A DNA stretch of 5,743 nucleotides from a virus (Duplodnaviria > Heunggongvirae > Uroviricota > Caudoviricetes): IMG/VR virus record IMGVR_UViG_2740892421_000003. One strand, given 5' to 3'. Below the pieces are notes generated by a model that saw nothing but the letters and a program-made list of their open reading frames with translations, ran no database searches and was not told where the DNA came from. The position numbers were made by a program, and so were the translations under genes. Shown here in pieces: positions 3-5,743 of this stretch (position 1 is its first letter; every line of letters begins with the position of its first letter).

Positions 3-3000
3 TCATCGGCCTCATCGGCGTCTGCTTCAAAAGATGAGGCGACCAGACAAGCGTCAGCAGCGAAGGGCAGCGCCACGACGGCATCCACGAAGGCAACAGA
101 GGCTGCTGGCAGTGCGACGGCGGCATCTCAGAGCAAAACTACTGCTGAATCCGCTGCGACCCGTGCGGAAGCTGCTGCTGATCGTGCTGAAGAGATTGCC
201 GGTGCAGTTGCGATGGAAGACGCAAGCCTTACAACTAAAGGTGTTGTGAAACTTAGCAGTGCTGTTGATAGCACCAGTGAATCGCTGGCCGCAACGCCAA
301 AAGCAGTTAAAGCAGCCAATGACAATGCGAATAGCAGGGTGCCATCTAACCGAAAAGTTAACGGAAAAGCACTGACTGCGGATATAACATTAACGCCGAA
401 AGATATTGGTACTTTAAATTCAGTAACGATGTCTTTCTCTGGCGGGGCTGGGTGGTTCAAACTGGCTACGGTTACCATGCCACAAGCGAGTTCCATCGTT
501 TACATCGCATTGATTGGTGGCGCTGGTTACAACGTCGGTTCCCNNNNNNNNNNCACATTAACGCCGAAAGATATTGGTACTTTAAATTCAGTAACGATGT
601 CTTTCTCTGGCGGGGCAGGGTGGTTCAAACTGGCTACGGTTACCATGCCACAAGCGAGTTCCATCGTTTACATCGCATTGATTGGTGGCGCTGGTTACAA
701 CGTCGGTTCCCCACATCAGGCAGGCATTTCAGAACTGGTTCTACGAGCAGGCAATGGAAACCCCAAAGGAATTACCGGGGCTTTGTGGAAGCGTACAGCC
801 GTCGGATTAACGAATTTCGCCTGGATCAACACATCCGGCGATACATATGATATTTACGTTGAGATTGGCAATTATGCGACGAGTGTAAATATCCATTGGG
901 ATTGTACTGCAAATGCGTCAGTTTCTGTTTATACCTCGCCAACATATTCAGCGAGTAAGCCTTCCAGCGTTACCTATGGTGTTGTTTATACGATGTATAG
1001 CTCACATCAGAAACCTACACCATCAGATATTGGAGCACTGCCAACAACCGGAGGAACAGTTTCAGGTCCGTTGTCTGTTACAGGTGGATTAACTGGTTCA
1101 TTGAATGGTAATGCAAGTACAGCCACGAAATTGCAGACGGCAAGATCTATCGGTGGAGTTGTTTTCGACGGTTCTGCAAATATTAACCTTCCAGGTGTAA
1201 ACACTACGGGTAATCAGAACACCACTGGTAATGCTGCAACTGCTACAAAACTTCAGACTGCAAGAAAAATATCCGGTGTTCCATTTGATGGTTCTACTGA
1301 TATCACTTTAACCGCCGCGCATGTGGCTGCTTTTGCCAGAAGGGCAACGGATACATATGCCGATGCGGATGGTGGCGTTCCCTGGAATGCCGAATCAGGC
1401 GCTTACAATGTCACCCGCTCTGGCGACAGCTATATTCTGGTTAACTTCTATACCGGAGTCGGAAGTTGCCGGACCCTGCAGATGAAGGCGCATTACAGAA
1501 ATGGTGGTCTGTTCTACCGTTCTTCAAGAGACGGTTATGGTTTTGAGGATGACTGGGCAGAAGTTTATACCTCGAAAAATCTTCCACCAGAAAGCTACCC
1601 AGTCGGCGCACCAATCCCGTGGCCATCAGATACCGTTCCGTCTGGCTATGCCCTGATGCAGGGGCAGACTTTTGACAAATCTGCATACCCGAAACTTGCA
1701 GTGGCTTATCCGTCAGGCGTTATTCCTGATATGCGTGGCTGGACGATTAAGGGCAAGCCCGCCAGTGGTCGTGCCGTATTGTCTCAGGAACAGGACGGCA
1801 TTAAATCGCACACCCACAGCGCCAGCGCATCCAGTACGGATTTGGGGACGAAAACCACATCATCGTTTGATTACGGCACTAAATCCACGAATAACACTGG
1901 TGCACATACCCATAGTGTTAGCGGTACGGCTGCTTCAGCCGGTGCACATACCCATTCGATGACATTTGTTTCAGGTGGTTCCAGTGGTGCTCCGGGAANN
2001 NNNNNNNNAGGTGCTTTGTGGAAGCGTACAGCTGTCGGATTAGCGAATTTCGCCTGGATCAACACATCCGGCGATACATATGATATTTACGTTGAAATTG
2101 GCAATTATGCGACGAGTGTAAATATCCATTGGGATTGTACTGCAAATGCGTCAGTTTCTATTTATACATCGCCAACATATTCAGCGAGTAAGCCTTCCAG
2201 CGTTACCTATGGTGTTGTTTATACGATGTATAGCACACATCAGAAACCGACGCCGTTAGATATTGGAGCACTGCCAACAACCGGAGGAACAGTTTCAGGT
2301 CCGTTGTCTGTTACTGGTGGTATCACCGGAACATTAAATGGTAATGCAAGTACAGCAACGAAATTGCAGACGGCAAGATCTATCGGTGGAGTTGGTTTCG
2401 ACGGTTCTGCAAATATCAACCTTCCAGGTGTAAATACTACGGGTAATCAGAACACCACTGGTAATGCCGCAACTGCTACAAAACTACAGACGGCAAGAAC
2501 TATCGGCGGCGTGAGCTTTGATGGTACTGCAAATATTAATTTGCCAGGTGTTAATACGACTGGTAATCAGAATACAACAGGTAATGCGGCTACTGCTACG
2601 AAGTTGCAGACTGCGCGTACTATTAATGGGGTGTCGTTTGACGGTTCTAAAAACATTGAGCTAACTCCAAGGTCTATAGGCACGATCAACTCAGCAACAA
2701 TATCTTTTAGTGGTGGTGCCGGATGGTTCAAGCTGGCAACTGTAACCATGCCACAGGCCAGTTCCGTGGTTTACATAAGCCTGATTGGTGGTGCAGGGTA
2801 TAACGTTGGCTCCCCGCATCAAGCAGGCATCTCTGAGCTGGTTCTGCGTGCCGGAAATGGAAATCCAAAGGGTATTACTGGTGCATTATGGCGACGGACA
2901 TCGGTTGGATTTACTAATTTTGCATGGGTGAATACATCCGGTGATACCTATGATGTTTATGTTGAAATAGGTAATTACGCCACAGGTGTTAATATTCAGT

Positions 3001-5330
3001 GGGATTATACCAGTAACGCCAGCGTAACGATTCATACATCACCAACTTATACAGCGAATAAACCAACTGGTCTTACTGATGGAACGGTATATGTCATTTA
3101 CAGTTCGCACATTAAACCGACCGCCACGGATGTCGGCGCATTACCAATAACCGGAGGAAATCTCAACGGCGGTTTAACGGCTACTGGTGAGATCATTTCA
3201 AAATCGGCGAATGGTCTGCGCATTGCCTACGGAAGCTACGGATTCTTTATCCGAAACGATGGTTCAAACACATATTTCATGTTGACCAATTCGGGTAACA
3301 GCCTGGGAACCTATAATAGTTTAAGGCCGCTTATCATTAACAATGCCAATGGTGCTGTTACGATCGCTAATGGACTCAATGTTACTGGTGGCGTAAATGG
3401 TAGCTTGAATGGCAATGCTTCAACGGCTACGAAGTTGCAAACAGCGAGAAACATCAATGGTGTTAAGTTTGATGGTTCAGGCGATATCAATATTAATACA
3501 TTGGTATCTCGTGGCCGAGTTACGGCGTTAAGCGGCTCTACTCAAGGCACTGCTGGCATTCAAATGTATGAGGCGTACAACAATAGCTACCCGACCATGT
3601 ATGGCAACGTATTGCACATGAAAGGTGCGAGTGCTTCTGGTGAGGGCGAGATGCTTGTTGGCTGGAGCGGAACGGATGGTGCTCATGCACCGGTTTATGT
3701 TCGTTCACGCCGTGATACTTCGACAGCGAATTGGTCTGGTTGGGCGCAGGTCTATACCACTGCTCATAAACCCACAGCGAAAGATGTTGGGGCTGCACAG
3801 ACGTTTAGCGCGTCATACAGTACTGGGGCTGGCAACTGGACTACCGCTGAATTTATCGCATGGCTGAAGGAGCGTGGTGCTTTCGCCGTACCGTATTGGA
3901 TGATGAAAGGCTCTTGGTCATATGCCGACAATAAAATTATCACTGATACAGGTGTCGGCAATATTTGTCTTGCTGGTGCGGTTATCGAGGTTTTAGGTCA
4001 CGAAGGCGCAATGACCATCCGAGTTACTACGCCTACAACGACAACCGGAGGTGGTATTGCCAGTGCTCAGTTCACCTATATTAATCACGGTAGCGCGTAT
4101 GCCCCTGCCTGGCGCAGAGATTACAACACTGCTCTCAAACCCACTGCGGCTGATGTCGGTGCGTTACCGATTTCTGGCGGAACAATGACTGGTGTGCTGA
4201 CGCTGCAAAATGTGAGTCAGCCCCTCAAGACGCAAGGTGGAGGCATTCTGGCAAATGATGGAAATTTATACATTAATAAGTCGGGATTTGCAGGCTGGAT
4301 TGATGCGCTATTTATGAAAAACAGCGGCGGTACGATGTCCGGACAGCTTAAGATCCGCTCTACGGATGGGTTACGCATTTACGATGCGGCATACGGGATG
4401 ATTTTTCGCCGTTCCGAAAATAATTTTTACCTTATCCCGACAGCAAAAGACCAGGGAGAAAATGGTGATATAGGTTCGCTTCGTCCATTTTATGTAGATC
4501 TCACTAATGGCAGAGTAACAATGGGCAATGGTGCTGTTGTTAACGGTGGTCTTGGGCTGGGTGTGGTCAATGGTCTTGGCGGTAATTCCATTGTTCTGGG
4601 TGACAATGACACCGGCTTTAAACAGAACGGAGATGGCATTCTGGATGTTTACGCCAATAGCGCCCATGTTTTTAGGTTCGTTAATAGCACGCTGCAAAGC
4701 CTTAAGCCGTTGAGTGTAACGGGTGACATCACGTCAAGTGCGTGGGTTTACGCCAACCGTTTTTCCATCAACAGCGGCTCTGGCGCGTGGATAGATATGC
4801 GTAACCAGAACGTCATCTTCGGGAGGAACGCTGTAAGTACAAGCTCTGCACAAGCGTTGTTGAGACAAGACCACGCGGATCGCAAATTCTTCTTGGGTGG
4901 CTTGGGAAACAGTCAGTTTGGTTTTTACATGATCAACAACTCACGTACCGCAAACGGCACTGACGCTGCCGCTTATCTCCAGAACGACGGCACTTGGGTT
5001 TGCGCAGGCAACGGTAGTTTTAATGACGTTTACATCCGTTCCGACCGCCGTAGTAAGCGCAATATTCGCAAAATTGAGCGGGCGCTCGACAAGCTGGAGC
5101 AGATCGAAGGTGTTCTCTACGAGATTCAGGTCTGTGGCCGTTATGAGCAGTCTGGCGGCCTCATCGCTCAGGACGTCCAGAATGTTCAGCCTGAACTGGT
5201 AACGGTTGACCATAACGATCAGTCAGGAGAGCCTCGTCTGCGTCTTAACTACAACGGCGTTATCGGCATGTTGGTCGAGGCTGTCAAAGAGCTGCGCGAG
5301 GAAGTGCGCGAACTGAAGGCAAAAATGTAA
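3..5330 (+). CDS. Long (side) tail fibre protein, mosaic, with C-terminal intramolecular chaperone domain; 5'-partial (continues upstream of window); spans two N-run gaps
   Basis: Frame +3 has no stop codon from nt 3 to TAA at 5328-5330 (1775 sense codons in window). Translation upstream of the track's ATG at 213 reads [70 protein letters not shown], a typical fibre shaft, so 213 is an internal Met. Contains the Stf-type motif [25 protein letters not shown], 40-aa tail-fibre repeats, a tail-collar-like block, HTHS motifs, and an S-D-x-x-x-K C-terminal domain. Family call from memory, not a search. Confidence 0.9.
237..311 (+). other. Conserved side-tail-fibre motif ([25 protein letters not shown]), as recalled from lambda Stf and relatives
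   Basis: Direct translation of frame +3. The motif and preceding Ala/Ser/Thr-rich stretch resemble the central region of lambda Stf as I recall it (..[25 protein letters not shown]..). Confidence 0.7.
387..711 (+). repeat. Tandem direct repeat: 157-nt unit (387-543) repeated at 555-711, period 168 nt, copies separated by the 10-N run
   Basis: Both copies encode [52 protein letters not shown]. By manual alignment there is one mismatch (T449 vs A617, GCT vs GCA, synonymous). Confidence 0.85.
544..553. other. Run of 10 N (assembly gap or masked bases) inside the tail fibre ORF
   Basis: Literal nnnnnnnnnn in the sequence; flanked on both sides by the same 157-nt repeat unit. Confidence 0.99.
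778..1265 (+). repeat. Long direct repeat, copy A (~488 nt; partner at 2011-2498, in-frame offset 1233 nt)
   Basis: Manual alignment gives about 28 mismatches in about 488 positions (about 94% identity; needs computational confirmation). Encodes [49 protein letters not shown]...[17 protein letters not shown]...[12 protein letters not shown]. Confidence 0.85.
1101..1320 (+). repeat. Two tandem copies of the ~40-aa phage tail-fibre repeat (120-nt period)
   Basis: [43 protein letters not shown] followed by [27 protein letters not shown]. The GGT-AAT-GCx starts at 1107 and 1227 are exactly 120 nt apart. Confidence 0.8.
1599..1998 (+). other. Tail-collar-like domain followed by three His-x-His (HTHS) motifs; a lambda-Stf-type distal receptor-binding region found here in the middle of the ORF
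   Basis: [133 protein letters not shown]. Matches my recollection of the C-terminal region of lambda Stf and of tail-collar domains (..LPDMRGW..). The block ends exactly at the second N run. Confidence 0.75.
1999..2008. other. Run of 10 N (assembly gap or masked bases) inside the tail fibre ORF
   Basis: Literal N run. Left flank is the end of the HxH block; right flank starts in the middle of the repeated module (GALWKRT...). Confidence 0.99.
2011..2498 (+). repeat. Long direct repeat, copy B (partner of 778-1265)
   Basis: Same manual alignment as copy A. Protein differs at only about 7-8 residues (for example LTNF/LANF, SVSVY/SVSIY, TPSDIG/TPLDIG, GGVVFDG/GGVGFDG). Confidence 0.85.
2334..2680 (+). 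repeat. Three tandem copies of the ~40-aa tail-fibre repeat (120-nt period; units start near 2340, 2460, 2580)
   Basis: ..[40 protein letters not shown] / [40 protein letters not shown] / [27 protein letters not shown]. Nucleotide copies are diverged, mostly at synonymous positions. Confidence 0.85.
2664..3158 (+). repeat. Third, diverged copy of the ~230-aa fibre module (TPRSIG...[18 protein letters not shown]...[10 protein letters not shown]...[16 protein letters not shown]...[17 protein letters not shown])
   Basis: Collinear at protein level with 387-1058. Nucleotide sequence is clearly more diverged than the A/B pair (roughly three quarters identical by eye, not computed). Confidence 0.75.
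3213..4580 (+). other. Distal fibre region with two related units of about 60-70 aa (3213-3400 and 4368-4580; pattern GLRI..Y..G..FR....N.YF..T.....G...SLRP......NG.VT..NG) and small domains each ending in a KPT..D.GA junction
   Basis: [54 protein letters not shown] versus [55 protein letters not shown]. Protein-level similarity only; no nucleotide repeat. Confidence 0.5.
3405..3500 (+). repeat. Sixth, isolated copy of the 40-aa tail-fibre repeat
   Basis: [31 protein letters not shown] in frame +3. Confidence 0.75.
5040..5327 (+). other. C-terminal intramolecular chaperone / autoproteolytic domain (endosialidase-chaperone, peptidase S74-like); predicted cleavage after Ser encoded at 5040-5042, Lys at 5055-5057
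   Basis: Translation ..[102 protein letters not shown]. The S-D-x-x-x-K spacing and the GLIAQDV / LNYNGVIG / terminal helix signature match the self-cleaving C-terminal domains of phage K1F endosialidase and T5 pb1 as I recall them. Confidence 0.8.
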
Positions 5331-5336
5331 TCAAGG

Positions 5337-5366
5337 TGAATGGTGAGGGGCCACCCTCACCATTCA
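5337..5366 (+). terminator. Perfect hairpin (13-bp stem, 4-nt GCCA loop) 6 nt after the fibre stop codon; possible terminator or attenuator lacking a canonical U-tract
   Basis: TGAATGGTGAGGG-GCCA-CCCTCACCATTCA; all 13 positions pair (7 G:C). Downstream sequence is GGATATTCACATC, not a T run. Confidence 0.45.
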
Positions 5367-5382
5367 GGATATTCACATCAAA

Positions 5383-5388
5383 AAGGAG
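5383..5388 (+). promoter_or_regulatory. Shine-Dalgarno sequence (AAGGAG) for the downstream gene
   Basis: AAGGAG sits 7 nt upstream of GTG at 5396 (5 nt upstream of the out-of-frame ATG at 5394). Confidence 0.6.
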
Positions 5389-5395
5389 ATTAGAT

Positions 5396-5743
5396 GTGCC
5401 AATTGTCGGTGTTCCCGGTTGGATTGGGTCTTCGGCTGTCAGTGTGACAGGCCAGAGATGGATGAGTGCGGCTCGAACGGCGGTGCAACTGCCAGCGGCT
5501 GGTTCAATGTCTCAAATGGCCGGGCGATCTAAAGAAGTTCAGTACAGCATCGGTGCGAATCATAACTACAACAAAGACACACTGATCAACTATTTAAAAT
5601 CCCAGGGGGCGACGCCAGTCGTTGTTACCATTACAGGGGATCTGGTGTCGTCCAGTAGCGGCGTGCCATGTTTAGATTTCCCGAGTTCACTTACCAACTC
5701 TTATATCAGCCTTGTAATCAACGCAGGTGTGACTGTCTATGGA
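5396..5743 (+). CDS. Hypothetical phage protein, GTG start, 3'-partial (runs off window); function unknown
   Basis: Frame +2 is open from GTG 5396 to the window end (116 codons, no stop): (M)PIVGVPGWIGSSAVSVTGQRWMSAARTAVQLPAAGSMSQMAGRSKEVQYSIGANHNYNKDTLINYLKSQGATPVVVTITGDLVSSSSGVPCLDFPSSLTNSYISLVINAGVTVYG. The overlapping ATG at 5394 is in another frame and stops after 17 codons. Missing from the ORF track because it has no ATG start and no stop in window. Confidence 0.6.
   Translation, partial: MPIVGVPGWIGSSAVSVTGQRWMSAARTAVQLPAAGSMSQMAGRSKEVQYSIGANHNYNKDTLINYLKSQGATPVVVTITGDLVSSSSGVPCLDFPSSLTNSYISLVINAGVTVYG

Follow-up and report, generated by a model that had tools for sequence, protein, structure and literature searches.

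Composition of the window and its genes

The stretch of DNA analysed here (the window, 5,743 nucleotides) carries parts of two different tail fibre genes, in which the protein motif KPT..D.GALP..GG recurs, and the start of a gp38-like adhesin gene (Table 1). Two runs of ten N mark the places where three contigs have been joined. The first two contigs, bases 1-543 and 554-1998, have a mutual overlap of 157 nt and match a single chromosomal prophage gene, the Stf gene of NZ_CP041422, with 100% and 99.93% identity, respectively. Bases 1-1998 are thus from a chromosomal lambdoid Stf (side-tail-fibre) gene. They have the features of side tail fibres of the lambda Stf type, namely a shaft rich in Ala and Ser at the N-terminus, a Collar domain, fibre repeats with GxHxH, and a tfa gene downstream. 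This part of the window has Pfam matches to Collar, Phage_fiber and Phage_fiber_2 and shows 99.9% identity to a 1075-aa gene which is located after gpJ and lom and is followed by a gene annotated as "tail fiber assembly protein".

The third contig, bases 2009-5743, has 100% identity with another contig (L004), which is free of N and on which the gene has a different upstream continuation than in the window. It codes for the tail fibre of an SSU5-like phage-plasmid. Features of distal fibres of the S16/T2 type are a match to 6F45 (E 1e-16), a match to Mu gpS (5YVQ), the Peptidase_S74 domain, and the presence of PF05268 and PF21721 in the next ORF. This next ORF, the gp38-like gene (Gp38_N 57.4 bits, GP38 93.8 bits in Pfam), is annotated as "receptor-recognizing protein" in homologous plasmids.

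A 1705-aa ORF in the window was considered as a real giant fibre and was rejected, as it is a scaffold chimera of three contigs which fuses two genes. A preliminary description of this DNA had proposed five module boundaries in one fibre. This is unsupported because of the chimeric nature of the window: motif copy 1 resides in the lambdoid Stf fragment and copies 2-5 in the phage-plasmid gene, so that the true gene (on L004) has four copies.

The chimera with its 157-nt duplicated overlap, the distribution of copy 1 and copies 2-5 over different genes, and the very many database homologues which are "partial" proteins on short contigs could suggest that the recurrence of the motif is itself an artefact of collapsed or chimeric contigs rather than a property of real genes. 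The fact that four copies are found on one N-free contig, that the block from 2351 to 3496 is present at 98% identity in one complete plasmid, and that many complete plasmids have two to three motif copies makes this explanation very improbable. There is a practical warning in this: fibre genes with common modules break short-read assemblies, and scaffolds can join pieces of different prophages into plausible-looking giant ORFs.

Table 1. Coordinates of features in the window (Stf, side-tail-fibre).
Feature	Position	Strand	Remark
Phage_fiber_2 (PF03406) copy	~225-347		
Equivalents of the degenerate N-side motif version	393-422; 561-590		the second is an artefactual duplicate
10-N scaffold gap	544-553	.	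bases 387-543 recur as 555-711 because two contigs overlap
D1 copy on the Stf contig	582-1010		
Motif copy 1	996-1055	+	regular expression and translation; belongs to the chromosomal lambdoid Stf fragment instead of the phage-plasmid fibre
r repeat copies on the Stf contig	1107-1175; 1227-1295		
10-N scaffold gap	1999-2008	.	chromosomal Stf fragment joined to mid-D1 of the phage-plasmid fibre
D1-A, partial	2009-2243		
Motif copy 2	2229-2288	+	after D1-A, truncated where the contig starts
Three tandem 40-aa r repeats	2340-2648	+	pattern includes GN.[AS]
Degenerate N-side motif version	2664-2693	+	at D1-B entry; assigned by resemblance; AF2 pLDDT <50 in this region
D1-B	2685-3113	+	all-beta domain of ~143 aa
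Motif copy 3	3099-3158	+	D1-B to Gp34_trimer-like domain; most used mosaic junction
Gp34_trimer (PF21446) match	3105-3338	+	begins at motif copy 3
Further r repeat copy	3411-3479		
92-aa domain before copy 4	3492-3767	+	C-terminal part resembles gp37_C and the end of T4 gp34 P5
Motif copy 4	3753-3794	+	without LP..GG; gp37_C-like 92-aa domain directly to Mu-S'-like domain
369-nt in-frame cassette	3768-4136	+	one motif copy plus Mu-S'-like domain; copies 4 and 5 at its limits
114-aa Mu S/S' tail-fibre-like domain	3795-4136	+	between copies 4 and 5
Motif copy 5	4122-4181	+	Mu-S'-like domain to second Gp34_trimer-like domain
Second, weaker Gp34_trimer match	~4320-4493		
Distal tip similar to Mu gpS and S16 gp37	4752-5330	+	followed by Peptidase_S74 and stop codon
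Peptidase_S74 intramolecular chaperone	5040-5204		Pfam PF13884, 44 bits
gp38-like adhesin gene, start	5396-5743	+	runs past the window end

The motif and the domains that it follows

According to searches by regular expression and translation, KPT..D.GA is in frame with the long ORF, its K being encoded at 1011, 2244, 3114, 3768, and 4137. Based on amino acid composition, 1.2e-4 matches are expected by chance, and any match was obtained in 2 of 20,000 shuffles. The preliminary description had listed the same five positions, and the motif is indeed found in frame at each of them, at a chance expectation of ~1e-4; copy 4 is degenerate, as had been claimed, since it is devoid of LP..GG. The coordinates in that description begin at the K, and the peptides quoted there begin two residues earlier. 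A fuller form of the motif is [VI]Y..H/N.KPT[AP].D[VI]GALP..GG..(T)G.L. Scans of ten sub-segments with Pfam, and scans with NCBIfam, yielded no model that covers it.

It had been proposed that each copy follows a different domain of 60-90 aa. This does not hold for copies 1-3, which all follow the same ~143-aa domain, D1, the copies of which show 71-96% protein sequence identity among themselves. Copies 4 and 5 do follow unrelated domains, but these have 92 and 114 aa. Sub-segment scans assigned D1 to no Pfam family and no NCBIfam model, and Foldseek found no confident fold match in the PDB (weak jelly-roll-like hits with E ~0.05 were disregarded); in the AF2 model of D1-B, strands are found at residues 17-131 (pLDDT 55-72). 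The 92-aa domain has strands at residues 27-91 in its AF2 model. The 114-aa domain is modelled with pLDDT 83-95 and resembles 8JU3 (phmmer E 2.6e-54; Foldseek rmsd 2.0 Å over 121 columns, 66% identity). Downstream of copy 2, there is a GG..G beta-helix-like stretch, followed by the r repeats, which had no significant Pfam match and no NCBIfam model in the sub-segment scans.

The match to Gp34_trimer (PF21446) scores 119.1 bits over three stretches, the cut-off being 27; analysed piecewise, 101.6 bits are obtained for 3084-3500 and 33.8 bits for 4107-4700. This part matches Mu gpS (5YVQ) and T4 gp34 in the PDB, and these two were the only PDB structures matched when AF2 model 1 was searched with Foldseek, the match being through the Gp34_trimer part. 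In the AF2 models, all motifs lie outside the folded cores, with motif regions scoring about 45-62. Both models are monomers of low confidence (mean pLDDT 59.6 and 65.3) and their use was restricted to the limits of domains and a short helix in copy 4 (see below). The KPT motif is the exit joint of a globular domain in this gene family.

A profile built from the five copies retrieved 1131 clusters (50% identity level) at E <= 1e-3. These relatives have up to 13 motif stretches per protein, with a median copy spacing of 109 aa. When 185 motif occurrences were classified according to their flanks, 5 upstream and 10 downstream sequence families were found in 17 combinations, and domain-order strings reveal extensive reshuffling. 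We thus retain from the preliminary description the modular fibre with the motif at domain exits and the reassortment of exchangeable domains around this linker; the domain sizes of 60-90 aa and the placement of all copies in one fibre are abandoned.

The recurrence might also be the footprint of domain duplication, the motif being simply a conserved edge at the C-terminus of the domains of one repeated family. This would account for copies 1-3 all following D1, and for the wider family, in which the motif has a period of ~100 aa and 273 of 394 inter-motif segments belong to one single-linkage similarity cluster. We consider this explanation unlikely, because no similarity was detected between the domains before copies 4 and 5, or between either of them and D1 (E > 1), one upstream domain may be joined to different downstream modules and the reverse, and the aligned ~100-aa units are conserved at their ends only.

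Breakpoints in related fibre genes

Alignment endpoints were collected in a census by megablast over 80 IMG/VR loci, which are not independent, supplemented by targeted queries with 527-nt junction sequences against 5426 E. coli genomes. The compared loci and genomes are related, the counts refer to records and not to independent events, and alignments necessarily end at the edges of conserved patches. With this reading, HSP ends are enriched near the motif, where 8 of the 33 endpoint clusters fall into 8.8% of the gene (binomial p = 0.0065). The r repeats collect 13 of the 33, with HSP ends clustering at 2422, 2499, 2516, 2644, 3411, and 3446. The r repeats are the entry-side joint and are a more frequent breakpoint than the KPT motif, so that a role of the motif as the main crossover point is not supported.

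The copies of the motif differ in their use. For copy 3, a sample of 60 from 347 E. coli records has 41 partial matches, of which 37 break at 3114-3174. In the alignments of this junction, the identity of the left partners extends through the K-P-T codons, and the match of the right partners starts at the D-V-G-A codons. At copy 5, breaks, concentrated at 4105-4170, are found in 21 of 28 E. coli records; in these 28 plasmids, 8 matches end at 4168-4170 and 6 begin at 4111, and 8 plasmids have only a 66-nt island (4105-4170) in common. Copy 2 is rarely a breakpoint, being spanned by 472 of 742 E. coli records, with breaks 60-80 nt downstream. Most breaks near copy 4 are inside the preceding domain, at ~3696-3709. 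In the E. coli junction queries, no match breaks inside the Mu-S'-like domain.

This domain, together with one motif copy, forms an in-frame cassette of 369 nt. Four complete plasmids are devoid of exactly this cassette and have their junction within the K-P-T codons, AAACCCAC. As far as CAT-AAACCCAC, the DNA of pCPF6-IncFIB is that of the copy-4 side; from AAACCCAC-TGCGGCT on, it is that of the copy-5 side. The crossover documented here used only 8 nt of identity. The proposal that the motif serves as a crossover point is thus borne out in the homologs by the breaks at copies 3 and 5 and by the cassette, but mostly not by copies 2 and 4.

At the DNA level, non-paralogous motif copies show 45-65% identity, with at most 11 nt of exact identity. 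Because of these low values, selection appears to act on the protein and not on the DNA. Ordinary homologous recombination between motif copies was also considered as a mechanism and is, for the same reason, not supported.

Rearrangement by invertases is a feature of Mu-, P1-, and p15B-type fibres, and the motif could be conserved as a DNA recombination signal, either a Gin/Cin/Min-type invertase site or a RecA-type homology patch. In line with this, one homologue adjoins a recombinase gene and opposed tail-fibre-assembly genes, and the 66-nt island at copy 5 shows 85% identity between otherwise unrelated flanks. Gin/Cin/Min sites are partial palindromes with the core AAACC-NN-GGTTT and lie as inverted copies on both sides of the segment. 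No similar site occurs at any motif copy: a scan of the window with two mismatches yielded 2 matches, compared to 2.7 expected, neither being at the motif. The DNA repeat scan detected no inverted repeats flanking the modules, and the window is devoid of a recombinase gene. Given, in addition, the low identity between copies and the documented crossover at 8 nt, a DNA signal is very unlikely.

The probable connector and its relation to known systems

HMMER/phmmer aligned copy 4 to residues 1233-1254 of T4 gp34 (4UXE/5NXH/9X3R), with a posterior of ~9 across the motif. The aligned gp34 residues are the connector between P5 and the beta-helix, the residue numbering having been cross-checked against PMC4786415. 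In the gp34 crystal structure, the P5 domain comprises residues 1146-1238 and the next triple beta-helix residues 1255-1271 (PMC5537660). For 4UXG, residues 1233-FVQVFDGGNPPQ-1244 have been assigned as strand, beta-layer, and coil, and residues 1245-1258 as helix (PSDI), coil (G), beta-layer (ALP), coil, and strand (Hartmann et al., 2016; PMC4786415). Because the homologous gp34 residues form a beta-layer, a one-turn helix, and another beta-layer between P5 and the beta-helix, the motif is likely to be a conserved element which connects the domains of trimeric phage tail fibres. This reading, in which it also acts as a cassette boundary in fibre evolution, has in our view a probability of roughly three in four.

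The beta-layer assignment would follow from homology to the single solved copy, that of gp34, which is itself diverged. Candidate beta-layer triplets in the motif are V-Y-T/S and A-L-P. Beta-layers are triangular and perpendicular to the axis, each chain of a parallel trimer contributing a beta segment of three residues; beta1 and beta2 are hydrophobic, and a small residue (A or V) is usual at beta2 (Hartmann et al., 2016). Among the motif occurrences, 90% have A at position 8; at position 9, 48% have L and 21% V. This composition is compatible with a beta-layer, yet it is not the canonical pattern with a small beta2. Among the motif copies, only copy 4 has a helix in the AF2 monomer models, of four residues on AKDV (residues 100-103), followed by G (pLDDT ~58-62), and copies 3 and 5 are modelled as coil (pLDDT <55). 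A search of the PDB with the motif profile found only 8JU3 and 9F4A, and there is thus no solved multi-bead fibre for comparison.

We envisage that the motif would begin with the final strand of a globular bead; a short loop would then lead to a helix of one turn (T/A-x-x-D-V/I), after which come a glycine and the three-residue ALP segment. The ALP segments of the three chains may pack as a beta-layer on the fibre axis, from which the chains would enter the following beta-helical or globular segment with a rotation of 120 degrees. As the motif sequence is the same whatever flanks it, fusions inside the motif stay in frame, and they would probably also remain foldable. Crossovers occur at very short identities inside the motif codons, and selection would then retain recombinants with structurally viable junctions. 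It is because of this constancy across contexts, and of fusions being in frame, that the motif probably serves as a cassette boundary.

Fibres of this kind need chaperones, and the motif might instead be conserved as a docking site for a trans-acting factor, for example a trimerisation chaperone of the gp57A or Tfa type. No direct evidence points to this; chaperone-type genes do occur downstream of homologues ("tail fiber assembly protein") and here (the gp38-like gene). The homologous gp34 residues form beta-layers on the trimer axis, which are poorly accessible in the mature fibre, and the motif is found in fibres with three assembly systems (Tfa, S74 intramolecular chaperone, gp38). A docking function thus seems highly unlikely to us.

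Tail fibres set the host range of phages, and their engineering needs known sites where domains can be cut and rejoined. The motif is a sequence-recognisable exit boundary of globular fibre domains with one solved structural precedent, and in nature cassettes have been gained or lost in frame precisely at this motif. Automatic domain parsing of many unannotated fibres could therefore benefit from it, and it could suggest splice sites for chimeras. KPT..DVGALP..GG may even act throughout the family of phage and tailocin fibres as a portable splice signal, which delimits hypervariable beads of ~100 aa and the K-P-T and D-V-G-A codons of which may keep barely sufficient identity at the nucleotide level for short-homology in-frame insertion or deletion of whole beads. 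This is a tentative idea, which we consider rather doubtful; if it is true, fibre modules could be parsed by rule, and chimeric receptor-binding fibres could be engineered with a general splice site.

The KPT motif is a known kind of fibre connector. Searches of the full-text literature for motif strings gave one relevant match, the gp34 line in a table of beta-layers (PMC4786415), and general literature searches on mosaic fibres retrieved nothing specific to the motif.

Short conserved protein motifs which flank exchangeable fibre segments and serve as crossover points are also represented by the His boxes (GxHxH) of T-even gp37/gp38. His boxes are metal-binding, and in sequence and structure they are unlike the KPT motif. 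Tetart and colleagues are said to have described them as recombination motifs in 1998. In the window, GAHTHS boxes occur only at 1899-1916 and 1941-1958, on the Stf contig, and none is near a KPT copy. The alpha-beta repeats of gp12/gp34 (Phage_fiber_2, PF03406) likewise belong to the short elements repeated in fibres and have, on the trimer axis, an S/T-P helix N-cap. However, this is a distinct motif (...ATPKAVK) which builds the shaft and not a domain exit, and the KPT motif lies outside its model.

In R-type pyocin fibres, the tandem ~83-aa knobs Knob1 and Knob2 are joined by a "helix-plus-turn" connector, a helix of 3-4 residues plus a sharp turn (Buth et al., 2018, Viruses 10:427). The fibres described here have the same bead-and-connector grammar, and some motif-rich relatives are named "pyocin knob domain-containing". 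The pyocin connector is recognisable at the structural level only (Buth et al., 2018), whereas the KPT motif is strongly conserved in sequence, and the sole link found between the pyocin fibre and this protein is a weak fold similarity in Foldseek (E 3.5e-4, TM 0.24).

The structural class of the solved gp34 homologue of the motif is that of the beta-layers (Hartmann et al., 2016, eLife 5:e11861), in whose description the gp34 segment is one structural example and is treated neither as a recurrent sequence motif nor as a mosaic junction. A parallel in position is T4 gp34 itself, where the homologous segment lies between the globular trimeric P5 domain and a triple beta-helix. T4 gp34 has one diverged copy, with PPQP for KPT, which is below the E <= 1 reach of the motif profile, whereas the fibres described here have up to four canonical copies and their distant relatives up to 13.

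Composition of the window

A 1705-aa ORF at 213-5330 runs across both runs of Ns. Bases 1-543 are 100% identical, and bases 554-1998 are 99.93% identical, to the chromosomal lambdoid prophage gene L001 (NZ_CP041422). This gene codes for a 1075-aa Stf-like side tail fibre, is located 3' of gpJ and lom, and is followed by a gene annotated as 'tail fiber assembly protein'. The first two contigs overlap by 157 nt (window 387-543 is a duplicate of 555-711). The third contig, bases 2009-5743, has a 100% identical counterpart in an IMG/VR contig devoid of Ns (L004), where the gene extends further upstream and includes in full the domain that is halved in the window. The complete records closest to this third piece are E. 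coli plasmids of ~106-116 kb and phage SSU5. The contig matches, the gaps, and the overlap thus identify the window as a scaffold of three contigs and the 1705-aa product of the ORF as an artefact, a fusion of two genes from different replicons (a chromosomal lambdoid Stf and a phage-plasmid fibre). Features and the domain order of the true gene are listed in the table.

The reading frame is kept across both 10-N gaps by chance. In the protein database, most close homologues carry the label 'partial' and come from contigs of 1-2 kb; short-read assemblies appear to be routinely broken at shared fibre modules.

Features of the window, with the phage-plasmid fibre gene (from 2009) in domain order
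Feature	Coordinates	Remark
Scaffold gap	544-553	exactly ten N
D1	582-1010	Stf contig
r repeats	1107-1295	40 aa (120 nt), tandem
Scaffold gap	1999-2008	exactly ten N
D1-A		partial; order 1
Motif copy 2		order 2
Three r repeats	2340-2648	40 aa each; order 3
10-residue element		ahead of D1-B; order 4
D1-B	2685-3113	order 5
Motif copy 3		order 6
Gp34_trimer-like domain		order 7
Single r repeat	3411-3479	order 8
92-aa domain		order 9
Motif copy 4		order 10
Mu-S'-like domain		order 11
Motif copy 5		order 12
Second Gp34_trimer-like domain		order 13
Beta-helical stretch		order 14
Tip resembling Mu gpS and S16 gp37		order 15
Peptidase_S74 intramolecular chaperone	5040-5204	order 16
gp38-like adhesin gene	5396-5743	3' of fibre gene

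The motif as an inter-domain connector

In-frame copies of the motif KPT..D.GA have their K codons at 1011, 2244, 3114, 3768, and 4137 (copies 1-5). From composition, 1.2e-4 matches are expected by chance, and any match was obtained in 2 of 20,000 shuffles. The motif is real and non-random, as proposed for all five positions in the preliminary description, and the conserved element exceeds the version given there ([VI]Y-x-x-x-x-KPT-[AP]-x-D-[VI]-G-A-L-P-x-x-G-G). The copies had been assigned to a single fibre, but four are encoded in the phage-plasmid gene and copy 1 in the chromosomal Stf gene. Each had also been described as following a different domain of 60-90 aa, which is wrong for three of the five, because copies 1-3 are all preceded by the same ~143-aa domain (D1).

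D1 is all-beta, and its copies show 71-96% protein identity; a 10-residue element flanks it at the N-terminal end and the KPT motif at the C-terminal end. It has no Pfam family and gave no confident fold match. D1 is present in fibres of the lambdoid, SSU5-like, and P2-like (prophage) types and also in fibres of other plasmids, including locus L085 with its adjoining recombinase gene. At this locus (NZ_CP009073.1, the 48-kb plasmid of E. coli ATCC 25922; 587-1141 and 2235-3261), a D1-motif-tip fibre fragment without N-terminus adjoins the recombinase gene and two opposed 'tail fiber assembly protein' genes; it looks like an invertible fibre segment of the Min/Cin type. Copies 4 and 5 are preceded by unrelated domains: one of 92 aa, C-terminally similar to gp37_C and to the gp34 P5 domain, and one of 114 aa with 66% identity to a solved Mu S/S' fibre domain.

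Copy 4 and the preceding strand were aligned by phmmer, with high posterior probability, to T4 gp34 1233-1252. In the gp34 crystal structure, the P5 domain covers 1146-1238 and the next triple beta-helix 1255-1271 (PMC5537660). The homologous segment of gp34 is therefore the connector between them. Structure 4UXG is annotated here, in order, as FVQ strand, VFD beta-layer, GGNPPQ coil, PSDI helix, G coil, ALP beta-layer, coil, and strand (Hartmann et al., PMC4786415). By mapping from gp34, V-Y-T/S and A-L-P of the window would be two beta-layers and T/A-x-x-D-V/I a one-turn helix, and we infer a trimeric beta-layer geometry for the motif. The AF2 monomer models score low (mean pLDDT 59.6 and 65.3), but their domain limits concur: the strands of D1 stop short of the motif, the region of motif 3 is unstructured, and a four-residue helix is placed on AKDV of copy 4. 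Modelled at pLDDT 83-95, the Mu-S'-like domain starts directly after copy 4 and stops just before copy 5. The motif is a connector between domains, and a homologue of it has been solved structurally.

Exchange at the motif and at the r repeats

Among the fibres of 80 related loci and 240 database homologues, compared at the protein level, 185 motif occurrences are flanked on both sides, with 5 upstream and 10 downstream families in 17 combinations. D1, the 92-aa, Mu-S'-like, Gp34-like, and further domains are found in many orders, a globular domain being followed by the motif and r repeats standing ahead of a globular domain. In a breakpoint census based on the ends of HSPs with at least 88% identity, 8 of 33 endpoint clusters are near the motif (8.8% of the gene, p = 0.0065); the r repeats give a stronger signal (13 of 33 clusters in 9.7% of the gene, p = 6e-6). 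No significant match to the r repeat was obtained in Pfam or NCBIfam. Mosaics among related fibres break most commonly at this repeat, which is a second joint, used more often than the KPT motif. The block 2644-3446 (D1-B, motif, and Gp34-like domain) looks like an insertion between two r repeats.

Junction queries of 527 nt each were compared to 5426 complete E. coli genomes. The copy 3 query matched 347 records, with the junction spanned in 111, and 37 of 41 partial matches from an evenly spaced sample of records break at window 3114-3174. For copy 5, 21 of 28 records break at 4105-4111 or 4168-4170. The 66-nt island in between (4105-4170) is the sole stretch that the window shares (85% identity) with eight plasmids whose flanks are unrelated in other respects, which suggests local DNA-level conservation of strand and motif. 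The proposed role as crossover point, borne out at copies 3 and 5, does not extend equally to copies 2 and 4: copy 2 is spanned by 472 of 742 records, with breaks at the first r repeat, 60-80 nt downstream, and copy 4 has some breaks at 3757-3779, the majority being within the preceding domain. With a query covering copies 4 and 5, no break internal to the Mu-S'-like domain was found in the E. coli genomes. The motif demonstrably serves as a cassette boundary.

Window 3768-4136, a 369-nt segment that encodes one motif copy and the Mu-S'-like domain, is exactly absent in four complete plasmids, e.g. pCPF6-IncFIB. Their DNA equals the copy-4 side through CAT-AAACCCAC and the copy-5 side starting at AAACCCAC-TGCGGCT. 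Since identity to both sides meets at AAACCCAC, the switch point is within the 8-nt identity of the K-P-T codons. At copy 3, identity to left-hand partners continues through AAACCGAC (K-P-T), and similarity to right-hand partners begins at GATGTCGG (D-V-G).

Ordinary homologous recombination between copies fits less well, because non-paralogous copies are too dissimilar at the DNA level (45-65% identity, exact identity over at most 11 nt). The same holds for site-specific recombination, since a site scan and a DNA repeat scan of the window revealed neither an invertase-type site nor an inverted repeat. We thus consider short-homology or illegitimate recombination inside the motif codons the best account of the exchange; selection would then retain in-frame, foldable junctions.

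Distribution and relation to known fibres

With a profile of all five copies, 1131 clusters at the 50% identity level were retrieved (E <= 1e-3); single proteins have as many as 13 motif stretches. The best 143 proteins carry 556 copies with a median spacing of 109 aa, and the sequence between copies is poorly conserved. Proteins with a name are tail fibres of Aeromonas, including a 'pyocin knob domain-containing S74 family peptidase'. Neither Pfam nor NCBIfam has a model that covers the motif; among PDB entries it is confined to 8JU3, 9F4A and, in diverged form, T4 gp34, and in the searchable literature to one gp34 row of a beta-layer table (PMC4786415). It has some practical value for fibre parsing and fibre engineering. 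A complete E. coli plasmid carries a tail-fibre gene of 1365 aa (L082 2380-6477; NZ_CP058309.1 43951-48048) under the label 'short-chain fatty acid transporter', an evident misannotation.

The Peptidase_S74 end and the downstream gp38-family adhesin correspond to the distal-fibre arrangement of the S16/T2 type, the carrier in this case being an SSU5-like phage-plasmid. It has long been established that fibres are mosaics and that exchange takes place at conserved motifs (His boxes, T-even phages). The motif is a well-documented new instance of this known kind of feature and will not surprise the specialist.
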